Source of the DNA: Escherichia coli
GTDB lineage: Bacteria; Pseudomonadota; Gammaproteobacteria; Enterobacterales; Enterobacteriaceae
Reading direction: 5' to 3' (one strand)
Assembly (NCBI RefSeq): GCF_003334255.1
Contig: NZ_QOWU01000178.1
Length of the DNA stretch: 990 bases
Below, in pieces: positions 1 through 954 of this stretch (position 1 is its first letter; every line of letters begins with the position of its first letter). The notes under the pieces were generated by a model. The model did no database searches. It saw only the letters and a program-made list of their open reading frames with translations, and was not told the DNA's origin. A program made the translations under genes and the position numbers.

Positions 1-954
1 CTGTTTTTCCGCCGTACGGTGAATTTCCACACCGAAGAGGTGATGCTGGACAAAATTACCGGAAAAACGCCGGTGGCGGCCTATGTCTCCCCGATCGTTG
101 AAGGAAAAGTGCTGCGCCATCGTGGTGGTGAAACCCGCGTGTTGCGTCCGGGCTACGTCAAGCCGAAACACGAATTTAATTACCAGCAGGCGGTTGAGCG
201 CCTTCCTGGTGAAGATCCATCTCAACTGAATGATCCGGCTTACCGCCGTCTGCGTATCATTACCGATAACCTCAAACAGGAAGAGCACGCCATTGTCCAG
301 GTGGAAGAAATGCAGGCGGTAAATGCTGTGTTGTATGGCAAATACACCATGGAAGGAGACCAGTTCGAGAAAATTGAGGTCGATTTTGGCAGGTCGACGA
401 AGAATAACATCACTCAGGGTAGTGGTAAGGAGTGGTCAAAACAGGATCGTGACACGTTCGATCCTACACATGATATTGACCTCTACTGCGACCAGGCCAG
501 CGGTCTTGTGAATATTGCCATTATGGACGGTACCGGCTGGCGTCTTCTGAATGGTTTTAAGCTGTTCCGCGAAAAACTGGATACCCGTCGCGGTTCAAAT
601 TCTCAACTCGAAACGGCAGTGAAAGATCTGGGCGCAGTGGTGTCCTTCAAGGGGTATTACGGCGATCTGGCCATTGTGGTGGCGAAAACGTCTTATATAG
701 CAGAAGACGGTATCGAAAAACGTTATCTTCCAGATGGCATGCTGGTTCTGGGGAATACTGCTGCAGATGGGATCCGTTGTTACGGTGCCATTCAGGATGC
801 TCAGGCGTTGTCCGAAGGTGTGGTGGCCTCTTCCCGTTATCCGAAACACTGGCTGACGGTAGGGGATCCCGCCCGTGAATTTACCATGACGCAGTCCGCG
901 CCGCTGATGGTGTTGCCGGATCCGGATGAGTTTGTGGTGGTACAGGTGAAATAA
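1..954 (+). CDS. E: Major capsid (head) protein, lambda gpE family, HK97-like fold; 5'-partial, N-terminus lies upstream of the window
   Basis: Frame 1 is open from base 1 to the TAA at 952-954. The translation carries blocks I recognise from lambda gpE: YVSPIV, RGG, PGYVKPKHE, DPAYRR, VEEMQAV, GKYTM, NNITQ, KLDTRRGSNS-LETAVKDLG, GDPAREFTM-QSAPLM and a DPDEFV-VQ C-terminus. The first window codons (LFFRRT) align with lambda gpE LFFRES at roughly residue 24 of the 341-aa lambda protein, so about 20-25 N-terminal codons are missing. The GTG at 19 used by the ORF track is an in-frame internal codon, not the real start. Identity to lambda gpE is estimated from memory at roughly two-thirds, not computed. 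Confidence 0.93.
   Translation: MFFRRTVNFHTEEVMLDKITGKTPVAAYVSPIVEGKVLRHRGGETRVLRPGYVKPKHEFNYQQAVERLPGEDPSQLNDPAYRRLRIITDNLKQEEHAIVQVEEMQAVNAVLYGKYTMEGDQFEKIEVDFGRSTKNNITQGSGKEWSKQDRDTFDPTHDIDLYCDQASGLVNIAIMDGTGWRLLNGFKLFREKLDTRRGSNSQLETAVKDLGAVVSFKGYYGDLAIVVAKTSYIAEDGIEKRYLPDGMLVLGNTAADGIRCYGAIQDAQALSEGVVASSRYPKHWLTVGDPAREFTMTQSAPLMVLPDPDEFVVVQVK

Follow-up and report, generated by a model that had tools for sequence, protein, structure and literature searches.

The window, a 990-nucleotide stretch of Escherichia coli DNA taken here at its full length, is open in + frame 1 from its first base onwards, the first stop codon being a TAA at positions 952–954, so that the gene is cut by the window edge, as the sequence-only reading had supposed. 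In the program-made list of open reading frames (ORFs) this frame appears as an entry at 19..954 with a GTG start and 311 aa, and the 18 bases ahead of that GTG translate in the same frame as LFFRRT. Taking the open frame together with identity to annotated copies and a Pfam match, positions 1–951 (+ strand) hold codons 26–342 of a capsid gene of the lambda gpE / phage 21 gp7 type. Within it, the LFFRRT codons (1–18, +) encode residues 26–31, part of the N-terminal arm region by translation and by the lambda gpE alignments. The GTG (19–21, +) reads as an internal Val32 codon and an artefactual ORF start, on the evidence of the ORF list, the lack of a Shine–Dalgarno (SD) motif and the TAT found in lambda. 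The TAA (952–954, +) is the stop codon of the capsid gene, equal to the annotated end of the coding sequence (CDS) at position 3954 of the ATCC 25922 prophage sequence (L001). Beyond it, a terminator-like scan and RNA folding picked out a G+C-rich hairpin at 962–982 followed by a T run (feature 962–990, +). A minus-strand ORF at 595–849 (84 aa) and several ORFs of 23–62 aa are also found in the window. We dropped the minus-strand frame and the other short ORFs as candidate genes, all being nested wholly within the strongly supported capsid gene and nothing marking them out as real genes.

A script comparison showed the window to be the same, base for base, as positions 3001–3990 of L001. Megablast matched all 990 bases at 99.2% identity to phage 21, whose head operon (M81255) and full genome (OL657228) both gave this match, and also returned several lambdoid phages, with the match annotated as major capsid protein throughout. 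Matches at 100% identity were present in many E. coli chromosomes, including ATCC 25922/Seattle 1946, G1/2, N25 and M16807, and were annotated as 'major capsid protein' (WP_000522603.1). Overall, 1,582 of the 1,888 matching E. coli records had a place covering at least 80% of the window. The head genes annotated in L001 and M81255 run portal, S49 peptidase, decoration protein, capsid, FI and head–tail joining, confirming a lambda-type head gene neighborhood with the order as in lambda. Judged from these matches and this order, the window covers the inner and 3′ parts of the major capsid gene (gene 7 in phage 21; the lambda E homologue) of a lambdoid prophage resembling phage 21.

Odd copies were seen in other records. 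In phage 204576 (CP025907.1; L006 226–1286), 986 of the 990 bases were matched and the frame breaks after 194 codons; either the copy is a pseudogene with a frameshift or the record carries a sequencing error. The record of Aeromonas phage AP1 (MT713136.1, 250152–250396; L010 4025–4269) contains a 245-nt unannotated fragment of the capsid gene, 97% identical to the first ~81 codons and beginning one base before the capsid ATG. Its surroundings, towards the end of this 254-kb T4-like record, are tRNAs and small hypothetical ORFs, and assembly chimerism or contamination is its most likely origin.

The full protein, reconstructed at 342 aa with residues 2–31 beginning GLFTTRQLLGYTEQK, was compared with solved capsid proteins and with family profiles. 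In phmmer, residues 1–341 aligned with residues 1–340 of lambda gpE in PDB entry 7vi9 (E = 2.1e-137), with matches to six other PDB entries of lambda gpE, and BLASTP against gene E of NC_001416 gave 62% identity over the full length. The lambda gpE alignments are gap-free across the N-terminal ~250 residues, while the distant solved relatives 3bqw and YSD1_17 align from query residues 6 and 2, respectively. The Pfam family PF03864 (Phage_cap_E) was matched over its full length, with model positions 1–329 of 329 on residues 5–341 (E = 3.5e-63). Profile, solved homologues and gene neighborhood all place the protein as a member of PF03864, in the lambda gpE-like capsid family with the HK97 fold.

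Phage 21 gp7 (AAA32346.1, M81255) is of equal length and identical at 339 of 342 residues, differing by three substitutions (I57V, Q190L and G204V) and by ~0.8% of nucleotides. Gene 7 of phage 21 has its ATG, upstream SD and stop as in the E. coli prophage copy, and the flanks are alike, with a shp-like decoration gene upstream and the FI-like ORF1 downstream; the E. coli copy resides in prophages, whereas phage 21 is the reference phage. Lambda gpE (NP_040587.1; PDB 7vi9 and others) has PF03864 in common with the E. coli protein and occupies a like place in the head-gene order, and the two N-termini align residue for residue. It differs in being one residue shorter, without one residue near position 255, in its intergenic sequences and SD, and at codon 32, where lambda has TAT (Tyr32) in place of GTG.

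In all eight relatives and copies examined, the capsid start is an ATG located 75 nt (25 codons) ahead of the first window base. Of these, seven have an annotated CDS with the ATG start (ATCC 25922, G1/2, N25, M16807, phage 21, PhiR5_1 and PhiR12_1), and the eighth, phage 204576, is unannotated and has the ATG in common with the other seven. The window's own upstream sequence was read from 100% identical copies, with four lineages checked, and runs gaatgaAAGGAactgatttATGggattg in these copies. The ATCC 25922 CDS (WP_000522603.1) occupies L001 2926–3954, and G1/2, N25 and M16807 show 0–1 mismatches to L001 over 300 nt upstream; the 342-aa CDS is intact in all four of the independent genomes with a 100% match. 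The arrangement of ATG and SD 75 nt ahead of base 1 is TGAAAGGAACTGATTTATG in the identical copies, with the SD motif AAGGA 8 nt before the ATG. The M81255 record likewise annotates AGGA 8 nt before the capsid ATG as a putative ribosome-binding site (RBS), and the duplex energy predicted here with the anti-SD tail of 16S rRNA is −5.6 kcal/mol. A search of the available literature for N-terminal sequencing or mass spectrometry of the phage 21 capsid protein gave no relevant result and yielded only the structural role of the lambda gpE N-arm.

The upstream limit of the gene is set by the stretch gaaTGAAAGGAACtgaTTTATGGGA, in which an in-frame TGA stands two codons ahead of the ATG (TGA-TTT directly before it). 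This TGA makes any start ahead of the annotated ATG impossible, and that option was considered and rejected. The same codon, 27 codons upstream, is the nearest in-frame stop to base 1; a stop immediately before the window, which would have left GTG 19 as the first possible start, is absent. Between the ATG and base 1, the only start-type codon in L001 is a TTG at codon 3. Across five relatives with 91–100% nucleotide identity, codons 1–25 contain five variable sites, all of them synonymous changes at third positions, the pattern that purifying selection on a translated sequence would produce.

These observations argue for translation that would start at the upstream ATG, served by the AAGGA motif, and yield a 342-aa capsid protein of which window positions 1–951 encode residues 26–342, with GTG 19 as Val32; we put the probability of this reading at about 0.97. 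The sequence-only reading had placed the true start and its RBS upstream of the window, with an ATG expected some 20–25 codons away, and the relatives and copies bear this out, with the distance of 25 codons falling at the top of the predicted range. Its alignment of LFFRRT over LFFRES of lambda gpE was recovered in two independent alignments, in which these are residues 26–31 of both proteins. It had also regarded the 311-aa ORF as an under-call of the N-terminus. Compared with the 342-aa annotated CDS, that call is indeed short by 31 N-terminal residues, of which 25 are encoded upstream of the window and 6 within it. The 311-aa ORF arises from GTG 19 because no stop precedes it and no other start-type codon lies between the window edge and this GTG; an ORF caller that met no stop before the edge would have chosen it.

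The alternative that survives best, although we consider it very unlikely, is a degraded source prophage, whose capsid gene has a deleted or disrupted 5′ end and so no functional start upstream of the window. Imperfect copies do exist, given the share of matching E. coli records that fall short of 80% coverage and the frameshifted copy in the phage 204576 record. However, the four genomes with a 100% match are all intact, with 0–1 mismatches in the 300 nt upstream, and the window's own frame is intact through the stop.

Less credible still is a genuine start at GTG 19, either as the sole start or as a second, internal one; the product would be a 311-aa capsid protein without its first 31 residues. 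GTG is a legal start codon from which the frame runs on to the stop, and the operon has a precedent in the nested in-frame genes two genes upstream (phage 21 genes 5/6, lambda C/nu3). Nevertheless, the 20 nt preceding GTG 19 have no SD complementarity (ΔG of +1.3 kcal/mol), and a start-type codon is not conserved at this place, where the aligned lambda codon is TAT. Lambda gpE and more distant solved capsid proteins show conservation of the 31 residues that precede it, and the synonymous-only variation described above falls in the codons ahead of it. Finally, GTG 19 is annotated as a start in none of the records examined, where the CDSs begin 31 codons earlier, and its description as an artefact in the sequence-only reading agrees with all of this evidence. 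Equally hard to credit would be a minor isoform without the N-arm, made besides the 342-aa protein by internal initiation at GTG 19 or ATG 43, on the model of the nested C/Nu3 and 5/6 genes, and having a role in assembly. An RBS was sought at the in-frame codons GTG 40 and ATG 43 and none was found, with anti-SD energies of 0.1 and −1.7 kcal/mol, respectively. A start at the TTG of codon 3, which is in frame and downstream of the capsid ATG's SD and would give a 340-aa protein, can be set aside as scarcely plausible, since its SD-to-start spacing is 14 nt versus 8 for the ATG, ATG is the stronger initiator and is chosen in all records, and Met1 of lambda gpE aligns with Met1 of the 342-aa protein.

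The capsid gene that would begin at the upstream ATG is bracketed by stem-loops, one upstream and one downstream. The downstream hairpin (GCGGGGGCG-AAA-TGCCCCCGT, then GTCTTTTTT) has nine pairs, seven of them G–C, and occupies window positions 962–982 (L001 3962–3982), where 51 nt separate the capsid stop from the FI gene. With a folding energy of −17.7 kcal/mol (z = −2.89), it resembles an intrinsic terminator. Inside the late operon such an element would need read-through, or it may be an mRNA 3′ stabilizer that raises capsid output. The upstream hairpin lies at L001 2876–2897, ~104–125 nt upstream of base 1, in the region TCAGGCCACC-ATGG-TGGCCTGA after the decoration-protein gene and ahead of the capsid RBS, and forms a perfect 9-bp stem (fold z = −3.1). 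Among relatives its central dinucleotide is AT or GC, with the palindrome kept, and PhiR5_1 and phage 204576 each have one arm mismatch. Lambda has a hairpin of unrelated sequence, with a T run, at the equivalent place between D and E (L003 ~498–519). For L001 2500–4400, which takes in the capsid gene with its flanks, Rfam gave no matches at E ≤ 1, and the flanking hairpins thus belong to no curated RNA family.

The gene itself is already known, with nothing novel about it: its product belongs to a class of phage capsid proteins that is long established and has solved structures. The case matters only for quality control: if a gene extends past the 5′ edge of a short window, an ORF track made on that window reports a false start, and downstream readers should treat ORFs of this kind as truncated. 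For the capsid protein, we infer that the N-arm of the HK97-type fold is made by the 25 missing residues and the first ones encoded in the window. The N-arm of lambda gpE contributes a strand to a four-stranded sheet, together with the N-terminus of gpD and the E-loop of a neighboring subunit (PMC5701804). Because the lambda N-arm strand joins this gpD-binding sheet, a product starting at Val32 would probably be without a structurally required element of the capsid, namely the N-arm strand of the sheet that binds the decoration protein.
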